From: Candidatus Lokiarchaeum ossiferum
GTDB lineage: Archaea; Asgardarchaeota; Lokiarchaeia; Sigyniarchaeales; Promethearchaeaceae
Length of the DNA: 32,000 nt
Assembly (NCBI GenBank): GCA_025839675.1
Contig: CP104013.1
Location: forward strand, 660,001 to 692,000
Direction: 5' to 3'
Shown here one piece after another: positions 576-10,020 of the stretch (its first letter is position 1; each line of letters starts with the position of its first letter). The translations under genes were made by a program, and so were the position numbers. Under the pieces are notes generated by a model. That model had not been told where the DNA came from, searched no databases, and saw only the letters and a list, made by a program, of their open reading frames with translations.

Positions 576-1652
576 GTGAATATTATTGAAAGAAATACGG
601 ATTTGAAAAACATGGGTTTATGGGTAGAATTATTAATTGTTCAAACAATTATTGGGTATTGCTTTGTTATGGCAAACGATTTGATAGGACTTTATAATAT
701 TAGAGATTTAAACAATATGAAGGGTGATATCACATTGGTAAAGGCACACAAGAGAATAGGCTGGATTGAAACAACCTTTTTCTATTGTATAACGATCCAA
801 TGTCTAATAATGGTTTTTATGGCTTTAGGAGGATCAGGCACACCTCCTTTTTTATCTATTGGAAATACAAGTGGTATTCATTTTATGATAGGTGGTATAG
901 TAGGAACGATACTTTTTTCGTTTAAATTTATTATCGCACATTTTAAAAAGAATATCATCTATAAATATGGTCAGTTCATCGGACCAATAGGGTTTGTGGG
1001 ATGGAGTTTAGCACATTGGACAAGCATGGTAAATTATTTCTTTTTTTATTCTGGAGAAACCATTTTTTTACCAAAGACTGCTTTTTCCTTCATAATTGCA
1101 GCCTTGATCTCATTTTCGATTGGAACAGCAATATTTTTAGGTGTTCTTGCTAGAAGAGGAGGAAGCACTACAAACAGTCGGTGGTCCGTCCATCAAATTG
1201 CATTCATTCTACATGGAATTACTTTTGGTTATGAAGGTGCGGCTAAAGATTTGTTAGGAACCCCAGCTTTATATAAATACGTCATACCGAAGACATATGG
1301 CTTTTTAGAGAAGATGTTGAAGGATGTTTTAGGTTTTGACCTGAAAGAATTAGAAGAGATGAATTTGAATAAAGCTTTAGAAGCTTTTACAAAAAAATCC
1401 GCCGAAATTGGTATGGCAGAAAAATTGAAGATTAAATGGGAATCCGATCATGTTTTTACCATCGAATCAGTAAATTGTTCCACCGCAAAGGTTCGAAGTG
1501 TTATGAAACCCGAGGAATTAACCAATGCAATCTGTCCATGGGCAATAATGGCTGCTGCGATAGTCAATAAAAGCACAGGAAAAGATCTTGAAATCGCTGC
1601 ATCAGAATTTAATGAAATCGGATCTTTAACTAAAGTTACTCTAAAAGAATAG
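576..1652 (+). CDS. Polytopic His-rich membrane protein with C-terminal V4R-like soluble domain
   Basis: Track ORF of 358 aa (GTG at 576; first in-frame ATG at 612). The N-terminal ~200 aa has about 6 hydrophobic helices carrying His residues (KAHKRIGW, GIHFMIGG, IIAHF, LAHWT, SVHQIAFILHG). The C-terminal ~130 aa is soluble. Its ICPWAIMAAAIVNKSTGKDLEI segment resembles the C-terminal half of V4R-type ligand-binding domains. The ORF ends in TAG. Confidence 0.6.
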   Translation: MNIIERNTDLKNMGLWVELLIVQTIIGYCFVMANDLIGLYNIRDLNNMKGDITLVKAHKRIGWIETTFFYCITIQCLIMVFMALGGSGTPPFLSIGNTSGIHFMIGGIVGTILFSFKFIIAHFKKNIIYKYGQFIGPIGFVGWSLAHWTSMVNYFFFYSGETIFLPKTAFSFIIAALISFSIGTAIFLGVLARRGGSTTNSRWSVHQIAFILHGITFGYEGAAKDLLGTPALYKYVIPKTYGFLEKMLKDVLGFDLKELEEMNLNKALEAFTKKSAEIGMAEKLKIKWESDHVFTIESVNCSTAKVRSVMKPEELTNAICPWAIMAAAIVNKSTGKDLEIAASEFNEIGSLTKVTLKE

Positions 1653-2656: not shown

Positions 2657-2734
2657 ATTGATATTCAAGTGATGATTCTATGGTTAATTTCAGTTAGGAC
2701 AATTGCTCTAAAAAAAAAAAGTGAAAAAAAAAAA

Positions 2735-3580
2735 ATGGAACACTCAAACTCTGAAGAAGAAGATCTTCAAGGAATTGATAAAGCTTACGTTAATCGTGCG
2801 ATGATTGGAAGTTTAATTGCTACTGTGTTAGTAAGTATTGGAATCTATTTGTTAGGATGGTTTATAGTCTGGGTAAGCTCAGATGAACCAAATCCAGTGG
2901 ATCAATCTAAAATGTGGCCGATCATATATCTCTCAATGGCAATATTTTTTGTAGTTGTGAATTGTTTGGTATATCTTGTTTCAAATTTATATGTGAACCA
3001 CTTTTCCTATTCGATATCAGATAAGTTCATTAAAATTCGTTATGGAGTATTCACACGAACAAAAACAACCATCCCATTTTCTCGAATTCAAAATGTAGCA
3101 GTTTTTCAAAATATTCGGGATCGCATCTTAAATATCTATACTGTCAAAATAGAAACAGCAGGAGCAAGTATTGCGGGATCTGGAGCACAAGGGGGTACAG
3201 TCCATCCTGAAGGATATATTCCAGCAGTTCGAAATCCTGAACACCTAGAATCACTTATTAACAAATTGGTTCACCAATATACTCAAGATATTTCGGGAAA
3301 TGTAAAAGAAAATGTGTTTACAGATAATAATGTGGCATTTGATGAATTTATTGCATATTTCTTATCTAAAATGCGAGAAAAAAATCAAATTCGAACAAAT
3401 GTTGAACAGCTAAGAACGCAAAGTGGAATGACCCAAGAAAAATTAGCAGAAATGGCAGGAGTGGCGGAAACAACTATCAAATATTTGGAAGATGGAGAAT
3501 ATGTGCCTTCACTGACTTTAGCTCTACGAATTGCACAAATATTCAAAGTATCAATAGAACAGATATTTCAACTCAACTAA
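2735..3580 (+). CDS. Membrane-tethered regulator: two TM helices + bPH_2 (YdbS/YdbT-type bacterial PH) domain fused to a C-terminal XRE-family HTH
   Basis: The track ORF starts at GTG 2669; I prefer ATG 2735 (MEHSNSEEED...). Two TM helices (AMIGSLIATVLVSIGIYLLGWFIVWV; WPIIYLSMAIFFVVVNCLVYLV) are followed by FSYSISDKFIKIRYGVFTRTKTTIPFSRIQNVAVFQNIRDRILNIYTVKIETAG, typical of PF03703-type bPH domains. The C-terminus LRTQSGMTQEKLAEMAGVAETTIKYLEDGEYVPSLTLALRIAQIFKVSIEQIF is a classic HTH_3/XRE. Confidence 0.8.
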   Translation: MEHSNSEEEDLQGIDKAYVNRAMIGSLIATVLVSIGIYLLGWFIVWVSSDEPNPVDQSKMWPIIYLSMAIFFVVVNCLVYLVSNLYVNHFSYSISDKFIKIRYGVFTRTKTTIPFSRIQNVAVFQNIRDRILNIYTVKIETAGASIAGSGAQGGTVHPEGYIPAVRNPEHLESLINKLVHQYTQDISGNVKENVFTDNNVAFDEFIAYFLSKMREKNQIRTNVEQLRTQSGMTQEKLAEMAGVAETTIKYLEDGEYVPSLTLALRIAQIFKVSIEQIFQLN

Positions 3581-3689
3581 TTTCTTTTTTCCTCCAATGT
3601 AATTCTGACTTAACACATTTGATAAAATAGTTCACAAGAAAGAAAATTGGATAACTAGCGATACCGAGAAGAATAGCGGAAGGTCAAGA

Positions 3690-3893
3690 ATGAAAAATCA
3701 AGTAAAAGAATTACGCATGGAAAAGAACATCACACAACAGGAATTAGCAACAGCAGTCAATGTTTCAAGACAGACCATATCATATATAGAAAACGGCGAA
3801 AAAAGTCCCAATATCATTGTAGCTTTGAAAATTGCTGAATATTTCAGAATGCAAGTTGATGAAATATTTGAATTAGAATCATCTGATAGATAG
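3690..3893 (+). CDS. Small XRE-family HTH transcriptional regulator (67 aa)
   Basis: VKELRMEKNITQQELATAVNVSRQTISYIENGEKSPNIIVALKIAEYFRMQVDEIFEL is a canonical HTH_3. GGAAGGT lies about 8 nt upstream of the ATG. It is roughly 45% identical by eye to the HTH of the preceding fusion protein. Ends in TAG. Confidence 0.9.
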   Translation: MKNQVKELRMEKNITQQELATAVNVSRQTISYIENGEKSPNIIVALKIAEYFRMQVDEIFELESSDR

Positions 3894-3964
3894 GAAAGAA
3901 TCTACAAATTGACCTTATGGACCCATAAGTACCCATCATTAAACATAGGAATTTATTTATTTTT

Positions 3965-3980
3965 TTATTAGTGCTAATAA
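3965..3980. promoter_or_regulatory. Perfect 7-bp inverted repeat TTATTAG-TG-CTAATAA upstream of the hydrolase gene (candidate operator)
   Basis: Read directly from the sequence. It lies about 73-88 bp upstream of ATG 4053 and directly downstream of the two XRE genes. Confidence 0.3.
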
Positions 3981-4052
3981 ATTTATTGAAAAGGTATAAG
4001 CCGAACCAATTATAAGGGTTTGGTTTATCGCCTACTCACTCAGGTTTTAACA

Positions 4053-6128
4053 ATGAAACAGAAATATCAATATCTTACAATAGTATTCATCACAATGTTC
4101 TTATTCGGAATAACGTTCAATCACAGTTCTGAGGATAAAACAATATCTTCTGAACATTCAGATTATATCCCGAATTCTGCCGCGGCTCACCCACCCCGAG
4201 ATATCAATAACATTTCCCAAATTGAAGAATTTTTAGATGAATTCATCCCAAACCAATTGGAAGAATCAAATATTGCGGGTGTCACCATTTCAATGGTTCA
4301 TAATGATAGTATTTCCTTAGTAAAAGGTTATGGGTATAGCGATATCAGCAAGGGTAAAAATGTTCAAGCAAATTCAACAATATTTAGAGTTGGATCGATC
4401 TCTAAATTATTCATTTGGACAGCAATTATGCAACTTTATGAGGAAGGAAAAGTGGATCTAAATACGGATATAAATAATTATCTCACTGCTTTTCAAATTC
4501 CGGATACTTTTGATGAACCCATAACATTAACACACTTAATGACGCATACAGCGGGATTTGAAGAAACACTCGCAAGAATTATTGATCCCGCGGATGTTTT
4601 TCCAGTTAGAGAACAATTCCTTCGTGAAAATTTACCTCCTCGATATTTTGAACCGGGAACAGTTCCATCATACTCAAATTTGGGATCTGAGCTAGCAGCA
4701 TTGATTGTTGAAGAAGTAGCCCAAACACCTTTTGAGGAATATGTTAAAAAAAATATTTTTCAAAAATTGAATATGTCGCGTAGCACCTTTCTTCAGCCAC
4801 TTCCAGTTAATGTATCTTCCTCAATGTCAAATGGATACTATTTTGAAAATGAACAGTTACAAGAAGGATTCTTTGAATATTTGAGCGTAGCGGCGGCTGG
4901 AGGGATGAGTTCGACCGCTGAAGATATGGCTCACTTTCTAATTGCTCAATTAAATAATGGAACCTATGGATCAAGTCAAATTTTAGCCCCAGAAACACTA
5001 TCCTTAATGCATACACCTCAATTTCAACCACATCCCGAATTTCCTACAATTCGATATGGTTTCTATGATCTTGATTTATTAGGACAAACATCGTTTGGGC
5101 ATGGTGGAGATACGTATTTTTTCCACAGCCAATTATCAATTTTTCCAGAATATAACTTTGGAATGTTTATTTCATACAATTCTCAGAACTCTACTGGACA
5201 AACTATAGCATTTCAAGCCAATTTTATGAAAGAGTTCATGGAAACTACCACAACATATTCTACAAATTTGACCCCTGTTGATAATTACCAAAAAAGAGTA
5301 ACACGATTTACAGGATACTATGAAACAACTCGAGTGCCTTATTCAACCCCAGATAAACTTTACTACAATTATTATGCTGATAGTGCCTTCAAACTCACAT
5401 CTAATGATGAAGGTCAGTTGGAAGGTTTTGGATTAACATTTTTAGAAGTTGAGGAAAATGTATTTCAAGATACACGAGGACTTGGAGTAAAACTTCTCTT
5501 TGTTGAAGATGCTACTGGAAATATCCGCTATATGTATACAAATGATGCAGTAGTTTCTGCTTCGATGAAATTTCAATGGTTTGAATATTCTTCCTTCCAA
5601 ATGTTCTTAGTAATAATTATTCCAGTTATCTTTGGTCTCAGTATAATATTTTGGATTGGAGAGGGTATTTGGAAACATGTTAAGAAAAAGAAACACCCAG
5701 TTATTGAACCCCAACAAACGACTAGAACCAACGATATATCCATTTCAAATGTATTCAAAGAAAAACCAAAATCAAAATGGGTGATAAATTGGCCCCGTAT
5801 TATTGTGTTAGCTCAGGTGTTATTGAGTGTTGTGTTTGTTGTCTTGGTAAGAATATTTCATGTGCTCCGTCTTTCATATATACTCCCCTATGATGATTTT
5901 TTTGATAGGATTCTGATTATCCCGTATTTCATTTTTCTCTTTATTGCGGCAACGGGGATTAATGCGATTTTGGAATGGTTTGGAAAGAATTTTCAACGAC
6001 CTTCAGATCAACCCTTGAAAGCTTGGGAGAAAGTGCATTTCAGTTTAGTGGCAGCTACCGGTTTATTATGGTTGTGGGTGCTCAGCTATTGGAACCTTTT
6101 AGGATTTAACTCAGGCGGAGTAATGTAA
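4053..6128 (+). CDS. Membrane-anchored serine hydrolase of the beta-lactamase / PBP (class C-like) fold with a C-terminal multi-TM domain
   Basis: The track ORF starts at TTG 4020; ATG 4053 (MKQKYQYLTIVFITMFLFG, signal/anchor) is more likely. S-x-x-K motif in VGSISKLF, Y-x-N motif in SYSNLG, HGG in FGHGGDT. The C-terminal ~180 aa contains about 5 hydrophobic helices. Confidence 0.85.
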   Translation: MKQKYQYLTIVFITMFLFGITFNHSSEDKTISSEHSDYIPNSAAAHPPRDINNISQIEEFLDEFIPNQLEESNIAGVTISMVHNDSISLVKGYGYSDISKGKNVQANSTIFRVGSISKLFIWTAIMQLYEEGKVDLNTDINNYLTAFQIPDTFDEPITLTHLMTHTAGFEETLARIIDPADVFPVREQFLRENLPPRYFEPGTVPSYSNLGSELAALIVEEVAQTPFEEYVKKNIFQKLNMSRSTFLQPLPVNVSSSMSNGYYFENEQLQEGFFEYLSVAAAGGMSSTAEDMAHFLIAQLNNGTYGSSQILAPETLSLMHTPQFQPHPEFPTIRYGFYDLDLLGQTSFGHGGDTYFFHSQLSIFPEYNFGMFISYNSQNSTGQTIAFQANFMKEFMETTTTYSTNLTPVDNYQKRVTRFTGYYETTRVPYSTPDKLYYNYYADSAFKLTSNDEGQLEGFGLTFLEVEENVFQDTRGLGVKLLFVEDATGNIRYMYTNDAVVSASMKFQWFEYSSFQMFLVIIIPVIFGLSIIFWIGEGIWKHVKKKKHPVIEPQQTTRTNDISISNVFKEKPKSKWVINWPRIIVLAQVLLSVVFVVLVRIFHVLRLSYILPYDDFFDRILIIPYFIFLFIAATGINAILEWFGKNFQRPSDQPLKAWEKVHFSLVAATGLLWLWVLSYWNLLGFNSGGVM

Positions 6129-6244: not shown

Positions 6245-7042
6245 ATGAATCTTATGAACGATATTATGTTAAAAGCCGAGAATATTTCCAAATCATTTGA
6301 AAATGTTCATGCTGTTAATGATCTCTCTTTTGAAATTAAGAAGGGAGAAATCTACGGATTATTGGGCCCCAATGGGGCTGGAAAAACTACGACAATTAAA
6401 ATGATTTTAGGTCTTTTAGAACCAGATCAAGGTGAGATTTCAGTGTTAGGTCTTCATCCGGAACGTGATGAAATTGAACTGAAAAATCGAATCGGTTATG
6501 TCTCAGAAGAGCCATTGATCTACAAATCCTTAACTCCCAAAGAATTATTTAACTTCATTGCTTCAATACGAAAATTAGATGGTGAGAAGGTAACAAAAAA
6601 GTTGGCAGAATACTTAGAAGGATTAAATGCTGTTGAATATTATGAACGGTTGATTTCAACCTTATCGAGGGGAAACAAACAAAAAATCCAAATTATTGCA
6701 GCAATATTGCATGATCCACAATTACTAATATTAGATGAACCTTTAGCAGGGTTGGACGCCAAATCGGTCAAGGTGGTGAAAGAAATTTTGGAATTGCACA
6801 CTCAACGGGGGGGTTCAGTCCTATTTTCAACCCACATTATGGAGGTTGCTGAAGATCTCTGCGATGTTATTGGAATAGTCAATCAAGGAAAATTAGTTGC
6901 TGTTGGAACTGTTGATGAATTACGCGAACGCGCCAACACACTTGGTGAAGATATGGACTTGGAAGATATATTCTTGAAACTTACTGATCAAGATGAATCA
7001 GTCAATCTGATTATAGAAAAGTTACGAGCATCAATCAATTAA
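6245..7042 (+). CDS. ABC transporter ATP-binding protein
   Basis: Walker A GPNGAGKTT, signature LSRGNKQK, Walker B LLILDEP, H-loop region STHIM. Confidence 0.93.
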   Translation: MNLMNDIMLKAENISKSFENVHAVNDLSFEIKKGEIYGLLGPNGAGKTTTIKMILGLLEPDQGEISVLGLHPERDEIELKNRIGYVSEEPLIYKSLTPKELFNFIASIRKLDGEKVTKKLAEYLEGLNAVEYYERLISTLSRGNKQKIQIIAAILHDPQLLILDEPLAGLDAKSVKVVKEILELHTQRGGSVLFSTHIMEVAEDLCDVIGIVNQGKLVAVGTVDELRERANTLGEDMDLEDIFLKLTDQDESVNLIIEKLRASIN

Positions 7043-7055
7043 GGAGACAAACACA

Positions 7056-8774
7056 ATGAATCGTCAAGAATTAATGACAATATCTAAATATTCCTATAAA
7101 GAAGCGTTCTTACAAGGCCAAATGGAACAAGCAGGAAGCAATTTATATTCGATTATGGAAAAAATGGAAAAAAATACAAAATATCTCCGCAATCAGAATA
7201 TTGCAATGAAAGTAGTAATGACAATCTACGTCTCTCTATTGATTTTTTCTCCGATTTCCGCATTTCTCAATGCGCGCGCATCCTTTGGTTTAGCATCCTA
7301 CCAATGGCGATTATTTTCAAGTGGCTTAGTAATGAACCTATTCTTTTTAATGCAATTTTTTTATATTCTGATGTTTGGCTTGTTTTTTGCATCTGGGATG
7401 TTGTCTGGTGAGGCATTTCGTTTCTTAAGTACACTCCCGATTCCAAAAAAGGATCTCCGAAAAATTAGTTATATGACTTTTCTTCGTGGAATCGACGCAC
7501 CTGCAATTGCACTATGTTTAGTCTTTCCATTTGCTGCGGCAATAATTACTCAAGATATATTTATTACTTTAATATGTTTGATTGTATCGATCTTGAATAC
7601 TATTTTCACTTTCAGTATTTTGATAATTATTGGAACCAAAATGCAAAAAATCCTTGCACCGAGTAATACACGTTCCCGAAAAGCCGATGTGATTCGAATA
7701 TTATGGTTAATTGGATATTTCATTGCAACAATAACATCAGCGGTCGGATTTCAGATCATATACGAAAATATAGAACCATTTTACTATACTGAGGGATTAA
7801 CTCTAATAACCACGACCATTTGGAATCAGATTCTACCTTGGATATCCTTTCCACTTAGCGGAGGATATTTAATCATGGAATTATTTATTGGCCCAACTCA
7901 CTTCTCTTTGCTAACTCTTGTTGCATCGATTGTTGGAGTGATTATTTTTGGAATATTAGATTATATTTTGACTCGTAAAGCCCTCAATATTTTAGATACA
8001 ATCGTGTATGGGAAAGATGGTGCTTTTGAAGAAGAATCTTATATAACCACTGTGGAGGATATTCAAATTACGATTGTATCACCGAAACAAGCTTATATTC
8101 GACGCGATATGAAATTAGTTCCTCGAGATATTCAGGTAATTATCATGAATATAATGCCCATATTATTTCCATTATTTGGGGTGATAATTGGAGCAGGTGT
8201 CGTGCGACCAGGAGATCCAGATGCAATCTTTGCAATTTTGGGTTTATCGCTTTTCTATTCAATCTTTGGTTCCATGATGGCTGCCATTGGGATGATGATG
8301 GTAGAATCCACGGGAACTACAATTATTCAATCTCTTCCAATTGTGGAGAGAGATCAAGCAAAAGCAAAGCTGCAATGGATTTGTGTAGTATTGCTAGCAT
8401 CTTTTGTCATCCCAGCAATTTCTATGATAGTGAGTCCGAATATGCGAGATTTGCTTAAATATATGGTCATTTTATGGCCATTGAGTTTCCTATTTGGCAT
8501 AGCAAATATAGAGTACTCGGCAGTAATCTTTGGAAAACTGAAATACAAGTATGTACTTACTGAAAAACCCAATATTCGCTACAAAACCTTGAAAACCGCA
8601 ACAATTTTTATACTCAATGCGATTTTTGCTATCGGATTAATTCTCGCTTCGATTGTAACAATTATGCATTTTGTCTACTGGCAATTTGCGTTAATATTCA
8701 TTGGAGGAGAAATAATTCTTCTATTTCTCTTGCTTCTTGGCTTCAATAAGCTATTTCCAAAGAAGAATTTTTGA
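7056..8774 (+). CDS. Large polytopic ABC exporter permease-like protein (572 aa, internally duplicated)
   Basis: Starts 13 nt after the ATPase stop, with GGAG 9 nt upstream (translational coupling). It has at least 12 hydrophobic helices. Two halves each carry an S-(x)-LPI-x3-D motif (LSTLPIPKKDLRK near aa 125; QSLPIVERDQAK near aa 428). Confidence 0.75.
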   Translation: MNRQELMTISKYSYKEAFLQGQMEQAGSNLYSIMEKMEKNTKYLRNQNIAMKVVMTIYVSLLIFSPISAFLNARASFGLASYQWRLFSSGLVMNLFFLMQFFYILMFGLFFASGMLSGEAFRFLSTLPIPKKDLRKISYMTFLRGIDAPAIALCLVFPFAAAIITQDIFITLICLIVSILNTIFTFSILIIIGTKMQKILAPSNTRSRKADVIRILWLIGYFIATITSAVGFQIIYENIEPFYYTEGLTLITTTIWNQILPWISFPLSGGYLIMELFIGPTHFSLLTLVASIVGVIIFGILDYILTRKALNILDTIVYGKDGAFEEESYITTVEDIQITIVSPKQAYIRRDMKLVPRDIQVIIMNIMPILFPLFGVIIGAGVVRPGDPDAIFAILGLSLFYSIFGSMMAAIGMMMVESTGTTIIQSLPIVERDQAKAKLQWICVVLLASFVIPAISMIVSPNMRDLLKYMVILWPLSFLFGIANIEYSAVIFGKLKYKYVLTEKPNIRYKTLKTATIFILNAIFAIGLILASIVTIMHFVYWQFALIFIGGEIILLFLLLLGFNKLFPKKNF

Positions 8775-8814: not shown

Positions 8815-8834
8815 AAAAGATGCGTTGATCTTTT
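8815..8834. terminator. Hairpin AAAAGAT-GCGTTG-ATCTTTT between convergent genes, preceded by oligo-T tracts
   Basis: A 7-bp perfect stem with a 6-nt loop, read directly. It sits between the permease stop (8774) and the stop of the minus-strand sensor gene (8833-8835). T-rich runs lie at 8786-8793. Confidence 0.35.
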
Positions 8835-10020
8835 AATCCAATTCATCCAATATCTTTTTTGAGCAATCTGGGCAATAACTATGTGTCAATTTTGCTTGAG
8901 AATGTTGGTCAATAAATTGTTCTAAATTATCCCAAGTTCCATCATCATTTCGAATTTTTTTACACGAAGCACACATGGGAAGAAAGCCAGAAAGAACTTT
9001 CATACGTTTTACGGTATCTTGGACTTTAACTTCCAAATTTTCAGTATAATCCTTCAACTGAAGTGTTATTTGGAAGCGCTCCGCCACTAAGGCCATTAAT
9101 AACAAATTTGTAAAAGCAATAATGAACAAATAAAATTGAGATAGAAGAACAGCCTGATCAATATCATTAGATGAGAAAGGAGCATCTCCATTGAGAATAC
9201 CATAAATCATTGATAAGGACACAAGAACCATATGATTAACAGCAATTTGCGGAGAAAAACGGAATACCGCCCAAATTATTAAAGGAAGAATTAAGTATTC
9301 AAAGTGATTAAAATCAATGGAAATTCCTACTCCAACTAAAATGATTAATTGAAAAACTATGCTTAGGCCTAAAAAGACGATCAATTCACCCACTTTGCGA
9401 TAATTATGCCAATCAATAGAGTTTGGATATGATTTTGTCAGAAATATTGGAGATATTATCAAAATTGCCGCCAGATCAGACAACCACCAACTAAACACTG
9501 ATGAAAAAAAAGCATCGACTGGTAGATAAGAGCCAAAAATTAATGCAGAACTGCCAATAATTCCTGCTGATAAACAAGAAAGTATAGCAACCAAAAGAAA
9601 TTTGATAAGAGATGACGGATGTATCAAAAAATCTTCCCTAATCCATTTCTTTTCAAAAGAAGTAGAAATAATAAATGGTTGAAGAGAATTACCGGAGGCA
9701 ATTAAAGCAACCACAATAATTAGTGAAAAGTTAATATTACCAATCATTGTCTTCATATTAACCAAGGCTTCGATGAACGTTCCAATCCAAATACCTATAA
9801 GATGAAATTTGGATTTCTTAAAAAGAAAAAGAAAAGTAAACCCGGCTGGCAAGTATAGTGGAAAAACAACATCGGTAGTGTCTTGAATTAAGATAAAACT
9901 AATCCTTCCAAGAAAAATGATGAATAAAGTGATAAAAATATTTGCTAAGACAATCTTCCCTGTTTTTGATAATTTCGTTTGATAAGAAATACGAATTTTG
10001 TTTAGCATAACAAGATCCAT
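8833..10020 (-). CDS. MASE1-like integral membrane sensor with short coiled coil and C-terminal Cys4 (CxxC...CPxC) motif
   Basis: About 10 TM helices. LPAGFTFLFLFKKSKFHLIGIWIGTFIEALVN and PLIIWAVFRFSPQIAVNHMVLVSL resemble MASE1 landmarks. The C-terminus is PMCASCKKIRNDDGTWDNLEQFIDQHSQAKLTHSYCPDCSKKIL. No kinase, GGDEF or other enzymatic output domain is present. Confidence 0.7.
   Translation of the reverse strand: MDLVMLNKIRISYQTKLSKTGKIVLANIFITLFIIFLGRISFILIQDTTDVVFPLYLPAGFTFLFLFKKSKFHLIGIWIGTFIEALVNMKTMIGNINFSLIIVVALIASGNSLQPFIISTSFEKKWIREDFLIHPSSLIKFLLVAILSCLSAGIIGSSALIFGSYLPVDAFFSSVFSWWLSDLAAILIISPIFLTKSYPNSIDWHNYRKVGELIVFLGLSIVFQLIILVGVGISIDFNHFEYLILPLIIWAVFRFSPQIAVNHMVLVSLSMIYGILNGDAPFSSNDIDQAVLLSQFYLFIIAFTNLLLMALVAERFQITLQLKDYTENLEVKVQDTVKRMKVLSGFLPMCASCKKIRNDDGTWDNLEQFIDQHSQAKLTHSYCPDCSKKILDELD

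Follow-up and report, generated by a model that had tools for sequence, protein, structure and literature searches.

A membrane-linked bPH_2–XRE protein and its soluble paralog, a probable regulatory pair upstream of ABC exporter genes in Candidatus Lokiarchaeum ossiferum

In the cytolysin system of Enterococcus faecalis two small proteins are encoded on the same strand, a membrane protein (CylR1) first and an XRE-type helix-turn-helix (HTH) protein of ~66 amino acids (aa; CylR2) second. Homodimeric CylR2 binds its promoter, induction requires the membrane partner and takes a route free of phosphorelay, and models depict direct CylR1–CylR2 contact (PMC3709268); the 66-aa domain of CylR2 dimerises alone (PMC3042103). 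YdbS/YdbT-type proteins with a bacterial pleckstrin homology (PH) domain of the bPH_2 type (e.g. DdE/DdF, LnqC/D) have a hairpin of two transmembrane (TM) helices followed by an intracellular bPH_2 domain, and those of the DdE/DdF type are linked to export of membrane-active peptides and adjoin ATP-binding cassette (ABC) transporter genes (PMC8657885). A locus that recalls both systems is present in a 32,000-nt stretch of the Candidatus Lokiarchaeum ossiferum genome (contig CP104013.1, positions 660,001–692,000; the window). Here, gene 1 (2735–3580, + strand) encodes a membrane protein with a TM hairpin, a bPH_2 domain and an XRE HTH, and gene 2 (3690–3893, + strand) encodes a soluble XRE HTH. 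The two genes are read as the regulatory head of their locus, which would control the promoters of the pair and, probably, the ABC exporter next to it, with the tethered protein as modulator and the soluble protein as repressor (probability about 0.45). That they form a genuine membrane-linked regulatory pair is very likely, and the regulatory interplay of tethered and soluble HTHs proposed in a preliminary description of this DNA is supported by the comparative data below.

Gene 1 (281 aa) is contained in an open reading frame (ORF) listed for the window at 2669–3580 (+), and its product is identical (100%) to NEF87_000566 of Candidatus L. ossiferum (phylum Promethearchaeota, formerly Lokiarchaeota). 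ATG 2735 is taken as the start because homologs are 277–286 aa long with the N-terminus ME.. throughout, and because an A-rich leader (GTGA plus an A-run) lies 5′ of this codon, as in relatives. The public model of NEF87_000566 has 302 aa and starts at ATG 2672 (region 2669–2734); its 21 extra codons overlap a weak operator copy (O3, below). The succession of TM hairpin, bPH_2 domain and C-terminal XRE HTH in one ORF, as first described, was confirmed by Pfam, hydropathy and AlphaFold. Hydropathy places TM1 at residues 21–50 and TM2 at residues 59–88. Pfam bPH_2 (PF03703) matches residues 89–145 (E 1.1e-16; 61.2 bits, cut-off 22), the part of the profile for the C-terminal helix being displaced by a Gly/Ala (G/A) loop insertion, and the whole domain including this disordered loop spans residues 89–184. 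HTH_3 (PF01381) matches residues 224–276 (E 4.4e-12). In AlphaFold (AF2) modelling with a 50-sequence family alignment (mean predicted local distance difference test score 78), long helices at residues 17–48 and 57–89 are followed by six to seven beta strands (91–165), a helix capping the PH strands (168–184), a conserved connector helix (198–215) and a five-helix XRE HTH (223–277).

Across the family, Lys and Arg residues average 4.0 at the N-terminus, 0.6 in the inter-TM loop and 3.1 in the 25 residues after TM2. By the positive-inside rule this distribution indicates an N-in hairpin, with PH domain and HTH therefore in the cytoplasm, and together with hydropathy it supports the earlier proposal that the HTH is tethered to the membrane. 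Topologies predicted for TM-anchored PHb families likewise agree with a cytoplasmic PH domain (PMC2817789). The stretch ASIAGSGAQGG (residues ~144–155), previously taken for the linker between the domains, proved by alignment and models to be an internal loop of the PH fold: two strands enclose it, confidence within the PH part is low in this segment only, and it is flanked by an invariant E-T-A (ETAG motif) and a nearly invariant P-E-G (PEG). The true interdomain connector comprises residues 185–222 and contains the conserved helix AFDEFIAYFLSKMRE; F195, F202, D203 and K212 of the connector are invariant in the family alignment.

Because the HTH dominated whole-protein Foldseek searches, a PH-only construct was modelled and searched separately. 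In the PDB it matched two bacterial PH structures best, 3dcx and 3hsa, and eukaryotic PH/PTB domains next; the matches are weak but consistent (template modelling score 0.5–0.57, E about 1e-2). With the above-cut-off bPH_2 match, the PH assignment thus holds both in hidden Markov model (HMM) and in structure comparison, the two points on which it had been thought vulnerable. By analogy with the related family PF08000, whose PH domains form oligomeric rings (PMC2817789), the PH domain of gene 1 probably oligomerises. The HTH matches CylR2 (1utx) and DR_2454 (9k3w) in Foldseek with template modelling scores of 0.91–0.93, root-mean-square deviations of 0.6–0.9 Å and 36–42% identity.

Gene 2 (67 aa; HTH_3 only, E 3.5e-18) starts 109 nt after gene 1 on the same strand and is, as first noted, a free-standing paralog of the tethered HTH, with 23 of 62 aligned residues identical (37%, E 9e-18; the estimate by eye had been ~45%). 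CylR2 is among the nearest relatives of solved structure for both gene 2 and the gene-1 HTH; for gene 2, sequence matches were obtained to DR_2454 (E 9e-13) and to CylR2 (E 2e-10). In XRE proteins of the 434, lambda and SinR class, positions in helix 2 and helix 3 contact DNA. Gene 2 carries a canonical reading head at these positions (ITQQ...VSRQTI, i.e. T-Q in helix 2 and V-S-R-Q-T in helix 3), and V-S-R-Q-T-I is also found in CylR2 and DR_2454. The gene-1 HTH lacks this head, reading V-A-E-T-T with the helix-2 Gln kept and the charge reversed at the Arg position; membership in the fold holds, while equivalence in DNA binding appears doubtful from these residues. As the reading heads differ (A-E-T-T vs S-R-Q-T), recognition of related operators by the two HTHs, which had been thought probable, is unlikely for this pair.

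This difference recurs across the family. When all HTH domains were aligned, the helix-2 N-cap Gln and the helix-3 Arg (second residue of S-R-Q-T) were each present in 56/56 soluble partners (four long partners being offset by one alignment column) and in 6/6 fusion proteins encoded without a partner (solo fusions). Among tethered copies of paired loci, the Gln was retained in 4/58 and the Arg in 0/58 in the big clade, and in 6/11 and 4/11, respectively, in the clade that includes the window. Tethered heads of the big clade typically read P-[LIV]-Q-T, and P0135, the solo paralog in the same genome as the window, reads VTRQT. These counts suggest that, where a soluble paralog exists, tethered copies have kept the fold but lost the ancestral reading residues. 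It is this loss that makes sequestration, one of the logics raised in the preliminary description, the favoured account of how the two proteins interact.

The fusion is a widespread family rather than a peculiarity of the window. Database searches returned 232 proteins matching gene 1, nearly all of the best 120 carrying both Pfam domains, and a survey of one genome per GTDB species found 141 genome stretches encoding relatives, of which 80 were fetched. The same single-ORF architecture recurs throughout these sets, and a frameshift, missed stop or sequencing artefact, the main worry about the ORF, was therefore rejected. A profile search of 1.84 billion cluster representatives yielded only about 25–30 full-length fusion clusters, lower-ranked clusters being YdbT-like multi-bPH proteins and multi-HTH proteins; in the further clusters all named members are Loki/Promethearchaeota. 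Nearly all of the fetched stretches belong to Promethearchaeota bins; the labels Hod-, Hermod-, Odin-, Thor- and Helarchaeota and Bathyarchaeota each occur on one bin. The sole bacterial match among the stretches, from a Parcubacteria bin, covers bPH only. That bin carries five consecutive bPH genes of 157–168 aa each, all without an HTH (L088 452–3082), a tandem array of YdbS-like genes in a bacterium of the candidate phyla radiation. Relatives with a named source are all Asgard, and, as far as seen, the fusion appears to be restricted to Asgard archaea. Searches of 72,556 plasmid and 50,697 phage records found no full-length relative, only HTH matches, and a mobile-element origin was rejected on this result.

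The preliminary description had allowed for the fusion being both common and already characterised. It is common within Loki-type Asgard archaea, but no characterisation was found: literature searches returned no description of a bPH–HTH fusion or of this Asgard family, and NCBIfam and PADLOC contained no fitting curated model, matching the HTH part only and always below family cut-offs. The bPH–HTH domain architecture is undescribed, and the kind of system to which it belongs, membrane-linked XRE regulation, is already known.

Partner genes were sought among ORFs and by a three-frame HMM scan, which recovered ten that ORF detection had missed. A same-strand XRE gene lies directly downstream in 69 of the 77 loci with a complete fusion gene; the outer flanks vary. 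In the window clade (Lokiarchaeum, Promethearchaeum, Harpocratesius) the partner is a single HTH of 64–76 aa, and outside it a protein of about 130–147 aa with an HTH and a second, more or less degenerate HTH. The fusions at the other 8 loci are solos, one of them (NEF87_000646; L089 4001–4867, outside the window) in L. ossiferum itself. The reading head of NEF87_000646, V-T-R-Q-T, is intact, and its TATA box is surrounded by duplicated ATGTAAG-N5-CCTTACAT palindromes; its neighbour is a convergent Condensation-domain gene, and there are no ABC genes nearby.

In a neighbor-joining tree, drawn without support values, the solos form a basal grade and the two kinds of pairing two separate clades, with one solo (L073) nested inside a paired clade; pairing and divergence of the tethered head may on this topology have arisen twice. 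No other group is as close to the rest as the solo HTHs (identity 48% with short and 45% with long partners), which fits an origin of the partners by duplication of a solo-type HTH. Local duplication has also affected the tethered gene, as at L025 (3959–6228), where tandem fusion genes (285 aa, and a 229-aa ORF whose HTH end is seemingly degenerate) are followed by one long partner.

The preliminary description did not include the solo relatives (among them the second copy in the same genome), the linked ABC exporter or the operators at the TATA box. Upstream of gene 1, an archaeal TATA box, TTTAAATA (2579–2586, +), is preceded by AACA resembling the transcription factor B recognition element (BRE). 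Family members share AAC(A/G)TTTAAATA in front of gene 1, the BRE/TATA-like element as a whole reading (G)AAAC(A)-TTTAAATA, and in the window transcription of gene 1 is predicted to start at about 2606–2614. Operator copy O1 (CGCAACTAAAGTTAACAT; 2562–2579, +) abuts and overlaps the BRE/TATA of this promoter, and the right half-site of the window's copies, TTAACAT in O1, is that of the family consensus. Copy O2 (CGCAACTAAAATTAACAT; 2623–2640, +) falls within the initially transcribed region, ~37 nt beyond the TATA box; it begins 61 nt after the start of O1 and is identical to it at 17/18 bases. O3 (CTAACTGAAATTAAC; 2683–2697, −) is a weaker, inverted third copy with three mismatches to the O motif (GCAACTAAARTTAAC); over 13 nt its complementarity to O2 is 92%, and alone it could be due to chance.

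The corresponding family consensus is ATGTnAA-N5-7-TTnACAT, a 19–20 bp palindrome, often duplicated, that lies 2–4 nt after TTTAAATA in most loci. A loose form of the pattern (TGTNA[AGT]-N4-9-[ACT]TNACA) was found in 43/74 upstream regions vs 44/2124 control windows (2%) from the same loci, and in 2.8/74 on average when the upstream regions were shuffled. The cruder test of any perfect 6+6 palindrome gave 29/73 vs 17% in controls. Close relatives have perfect palindromes, TGCAAC-N5-GTTGCA or TGTCAA-N6-TTGACA, at equivalent places. As the same type of operator occurs in solo loci, where the tethered protein has S-R-Q-T, and in paired loci, where only the soluble protein does, it was assigned to the S-R-Q-T head, whose protein would be the one that binds at the TATA box. 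Archaeal repressors positioned on the BRE/TATA or start region block assembly of the pre-initiation complex, and repression of the module via these sites would follow the same pattern. Autoregulation through the TATA-box operators is likely.

Gene 2 may have a promoter of its own. An oligo-T tract, TTTCTTTTTTCC (3581–3592, +; read from the sequence), directly follows the gene-1 stop codon and is a candidate archaeal termination or attenuation signal; T-runs similar to TTTCTTTTTTCC are present after gene 1 in relatives. A consensus-type operator found by pattern match 18 nt after the stop (TGTAATTCTGACTTAACA; 3598–3615, +) is followed by the TATA-like TTTGATAAAATA (3618–3629, +), with a TTAACA half-site beside the TATA in the geometry of O1. 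T-tract, TGTAATTCTGACTTAACA and TTTGATAAAATA together suggest a separate, repressible gene-2 promoter, for which 3598–3629 is the candidate. Upstream of the module lies an unusually long intergenic region of about 500 bp; at 2240–2560 it is very AT-rich, with several imperfect inverted repeats (e.g. 2270–2298 with 2339–2367) that have no Rfam match; the whole window gave no Rfam match at gathering thresholds.

Other palindromes lie between gene 2 and the next gene. TTATGGACCCATAA (3915–3928, no strand) is part of a conserved block of TATGG/CCATA half-sites (about 3899–3945) and may be a second type of operator. TATGG/CCATA arrays are found at the equivalent place in Promethearchaeum and also upstream of a solo fusion gene (L005 4133–4235, L009 5029–5135, L011 5105–5210, L012 5126–5225, L013 5120–5225 and L004 ~3895–3920). 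A structured RNA in this block was considered and rejected, the consensus fold having −10.9 kcal/mol with a covariation term of ~0 and one compensatory pair. TTATTAGTGCTAATAA (3965–3980, no strand; read from the sequence), a perfect AT-rich palindrome upstream of the next gene, is of doubtful significance because it is not conserved in the ortholog region of P. syntrophicum MK-D1.

That next gene encodes a membrane-bound serine hydrolase of the beta-lactamase fold (4020–6128, +; 702 aa; Pfam Beta-lactamase, PF00144, E 8e-52) with an N-terminal anchor and a C-terminal multi-TM block; ATG 4053 is a likelier start than TTG 4020. It is followed by an ABC transporter ATPase gene (6245–7042, +; ABC_tran, E 1e-31) and the gene for its 12-TM partner, a putative exporter permease (7056–8774, +; 12TM_1, E 1e-8). 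A hydrolase between the regulator pair and ABC genes is found only in L. ossiferum and MK-D1 (L012 5288–7444; 41% identity). Linkage of the ATPase is broader: in 17 loci a homolog comes immediately after gene 2 (three from Promethearchaeum with 81% identity, many others with about 35%) and in two immediately after a solo gene 1 (L007, L021). Counting the window and MK-D1, 21 loci have an ABC ATPase after the module, and in about seven it is on the same strand just upstream; permease homologs follow the ATPase in L009, L011 and L021. Gene 2 and the ATPase gene of the big clade are separated by a short A-rich spacer with no obvious promoter, suggesting one operon. Control of the exporter by the module is, on this linkage, somewhat more probable than its absence.

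The remaining genes of the window serve ordinary transport and metabolism and give the module no mobile or defence context. Just after the permease gene, and convergent with it, a gene at 8833–10020 (−) encodes a 394-aa membrane protein that is in essence a MASE1 sensor domain (E 1e-18) with no recognisable output domain. Elsewhere, 576–1652 (+) encodes a 358-aa multi-TM protein with a soluble C-terminal part and no Pfam match (best E 0.07), and 27903–31427 (−) a protein of 1173 aa with six right-handed beta-helix/NosD repeats and Ig-like (Big_13) domains, probably a surface protein.

The reading put forward here would work as follows. The soluble, CylR2-like product of gene 2 would act as a dimeric repressor occupying the operators on and just after the TATA box and, in many lineages, would also control an exporter operon co-transcribed with the module. 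The gene-1 protein would serve as sensor or modulator and register a cue, from the membrane or related to the transporter, with its PH domain and TM hairpin. Its HTH-like domain would heterodimerise with the soluble paralog, so that capture or release sets the level of free repressor; this capture step is tentative and would sooner fail than hold. In solo relatives a single tethered protein with an intact head would do both jobs, binding the operator at the membrane. The fullest version, in which Loki-type archaea possess a phosphotransfer-free device whose PH membrane protein captures and releases a soluble repressor by means of a decoy repressor HTH, and which evolved twice from a one-protein tethered repressor, is a speculative extension, with the odds well against it.

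Several observations weigh against this account. The operators of the window are asymmetric, atypical variants of the family palindrome, placed relative to a start site that is only predicted, and the evidence that the S-R-Q-T protein binds them is co-occurrence. An ABC ATPase is found in the flanks of only about a quarter to 40% of loci, and the ABC genes of the window probably have a separate promoter upstream, which carries different palindromes. The tree that suggests two origins of pairing is unsupported. Promethearchaeum tethered copies keep S-R-T-T, and the diverged tethered heads are well conserved within clades (P-[LIV]-Q-T; [AS]-E-[ST]-T), a conservation to be expected of a new DNA specificity as well as of a docking role.

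A new specificity is the core of a rather doubtful alternative, in which the two proteins are independent DNA binders: the tethered HTH would be a working membrane-bound transcription factor of the ToxR, CadC or ArnR kind, with a target such as the TATGG/CCATA palindromes found after gene 2 and before the hydrolase/ABC genes, while the soluble protein keeps the ancestral operator, the two acting in parallel or in competition, the other logic raised in the preliminary description. That solo relatives combine an intact head with the same operators makes DNA binding by a tethered HTH plausible, the diverged residues are conserved within clades, and a second type of palindrome is associated with the module. 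However, the Arg-to-Glu reversal and, in most paired tethered copies, the loss of the helix-2 Gln affect residues that are invariant in all presumed binders. The TATGG palindromes do not track the diverged heads, since they also occur upstream of a solo fusion that has the S-R-Q-T head only, and in the big clade a second type of palindrome was not observed in front of the ABC genes. A role as transport accessory, in which the TM-bPH part would work with the ABC exporter in the manner of DdE/DdF and the HTH would couple the amount or assembly of the machinery to transcription of the operon, appears improbable, although ABC exporter genes are a recurrent neighbour. In its favour, DdE and DdF, encoded upstream of the ABC-transporter genes ddHIJ, are needed for export of enterocin DD14 (PMC8657885). 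Rings have been solved for PH domains of the related family PF08000, from which a pore or transporter role was hypothesised for membrane-anchored PHb families including DUF304 (bPH_2) (PMC2817789). Many loci, including that of the second L. ossiferum copy, nevertheless have no ABC genes nearby, a gene for an exported peptide was not identified, and such a role would be compatible with regulation by capture, not exclusive of it.

Regulated proteolysis, with cleavage in the connector (residues 185–222) freeing the HTH as in SREBP, ATF6 and anti-sigma cascades, is permitted by the architecture and would give the striking conservation of the connector a meaning; yet the conserved part is predicted to be helical, not an exposed cleavage loop, no protease gene is linked to the module in the loci examined, and the domain set free in paired loci would lack canonical reading residues, all of which leaves this mechanism very improbable. 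Least credible is that the pair belongs to the toxin–antitoxin, defence or mobile-element modules, the XRE protein being the antitoxin and the membrane protein the toxin. XRE HTHs are common as antitoxins and controller proteins, and weak generic HTH matches were obtained in PADLOC and NCBIfam, but these were sub-threshold and confined to the HTH part. Full-length relatives are absent from the plasmid and phage records searched, the surroundings are ordinary chromosomal transport and metabolism genes, and the family is conserved in many Asgard species with lineage-specific operators.

Capture of a soluble repressor by a tethered paralog, if true, would add a phosphorelay-free route from membrane to DNA and would give a concrete mechanistic role to the bPH_2 domain, which is widespread though little understood, and, by analogy, to CylR1/CylR2. 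To our knowledge, Asgard transcription regulators with any proposed mechanism are very few, and membrane-linked ones are rare in archaea generally. The family described here is conserved, its operator can be read, the geometry of its promoter is defined and the ABC exporter is a plausible target; it also amounts to a natural evolutionary experiment in which solos keep the reading residues and paired tethered copies have lost them to the soluble paralog. Both Asgard species in culture, L. ossiferum and P. syntrophicum MK-D1, carry the family, which makes the proposal directly testable.

Among described systems, CylR1/CylR2 is, by analogy, the closest in working logic to the Asgard pair, sharing its gene order and strand, the size of its second protein and the VSRQTI of gene 2. 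CylR1 differs in being ~94 aa long with three predicted TM helices and neither PH nor HTH, both of which gene 1 has after its two TM helices; with architectures this different, the relation between gene 1 and CylR1 is one of analogy only. The target also differs, a bacterial lantibiotic operon there, and here an Asgard host with a TATA/BRE promoter and an ABC exporter as neighbour. YdbS/YdbT-type proteins match the membrane half of gene 1, but are bacterial, the described members have no DNA-binding domain, and no peptide cargo is evident at the Asgard locus. In Firmicutes, a gene for a CylR2/YozG-like XRE protein of ~70 aa overlaps a small multi-TM gene with a DUF2178-like product (e.g. on a Bacillus thuringiensis plasmid); in these pairs the gene order is reversed, PH and HTH are lacking in the membrane protein, the DUF2178 match is below cut-off and the pairs are uncharacterised.

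ToxR/CadC and the ArnR/ArnR1 type resemble gene 1 in holding a cytoplasmic DNA-binding domain at the membrane by TM helices, and ArnR/ArnR1 of Sulfolobus are archaeal membrane-bound one-component regulators. Solo relatives such as NEF87_000646, to judge from their intact heads and from the operators at their own TATA boxes, probably work in this way. The DNA-binding domain of ToxR/CadC/ArnR is, however, a winged helix or other HTH at the N-terminus, combined with an extracytoplasmic or C-terminal sensor, whereas the gene-1 family has a C-terminal XRE HTH, an outside loop of about 8–15 residues and a cytoplasmic PH domain as candidate sensor, and most of its members, unlike ToxR/CadC/ArnR, have handed DNA reading to a soluble paralog. 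In SinR/SinI/SlrR of Bacillus subtilis the activity of an XRE repressor is set by a paralogous partner through titration. The Asgard pair would share this titration of a repressor by a related partner, with no small ligand; it differs in that the Bacillus proteins interact through separate C-terminal helical domains and are all soluble, whereas here the HTH itself is the candidate interface and the titrator is anchored in the membrane. A decoy-capture device of this kind, if true, would be a prokaryotic counterpart, in logic and not by homology, of the membrane sequestration of transcription factors in eukaryotes.

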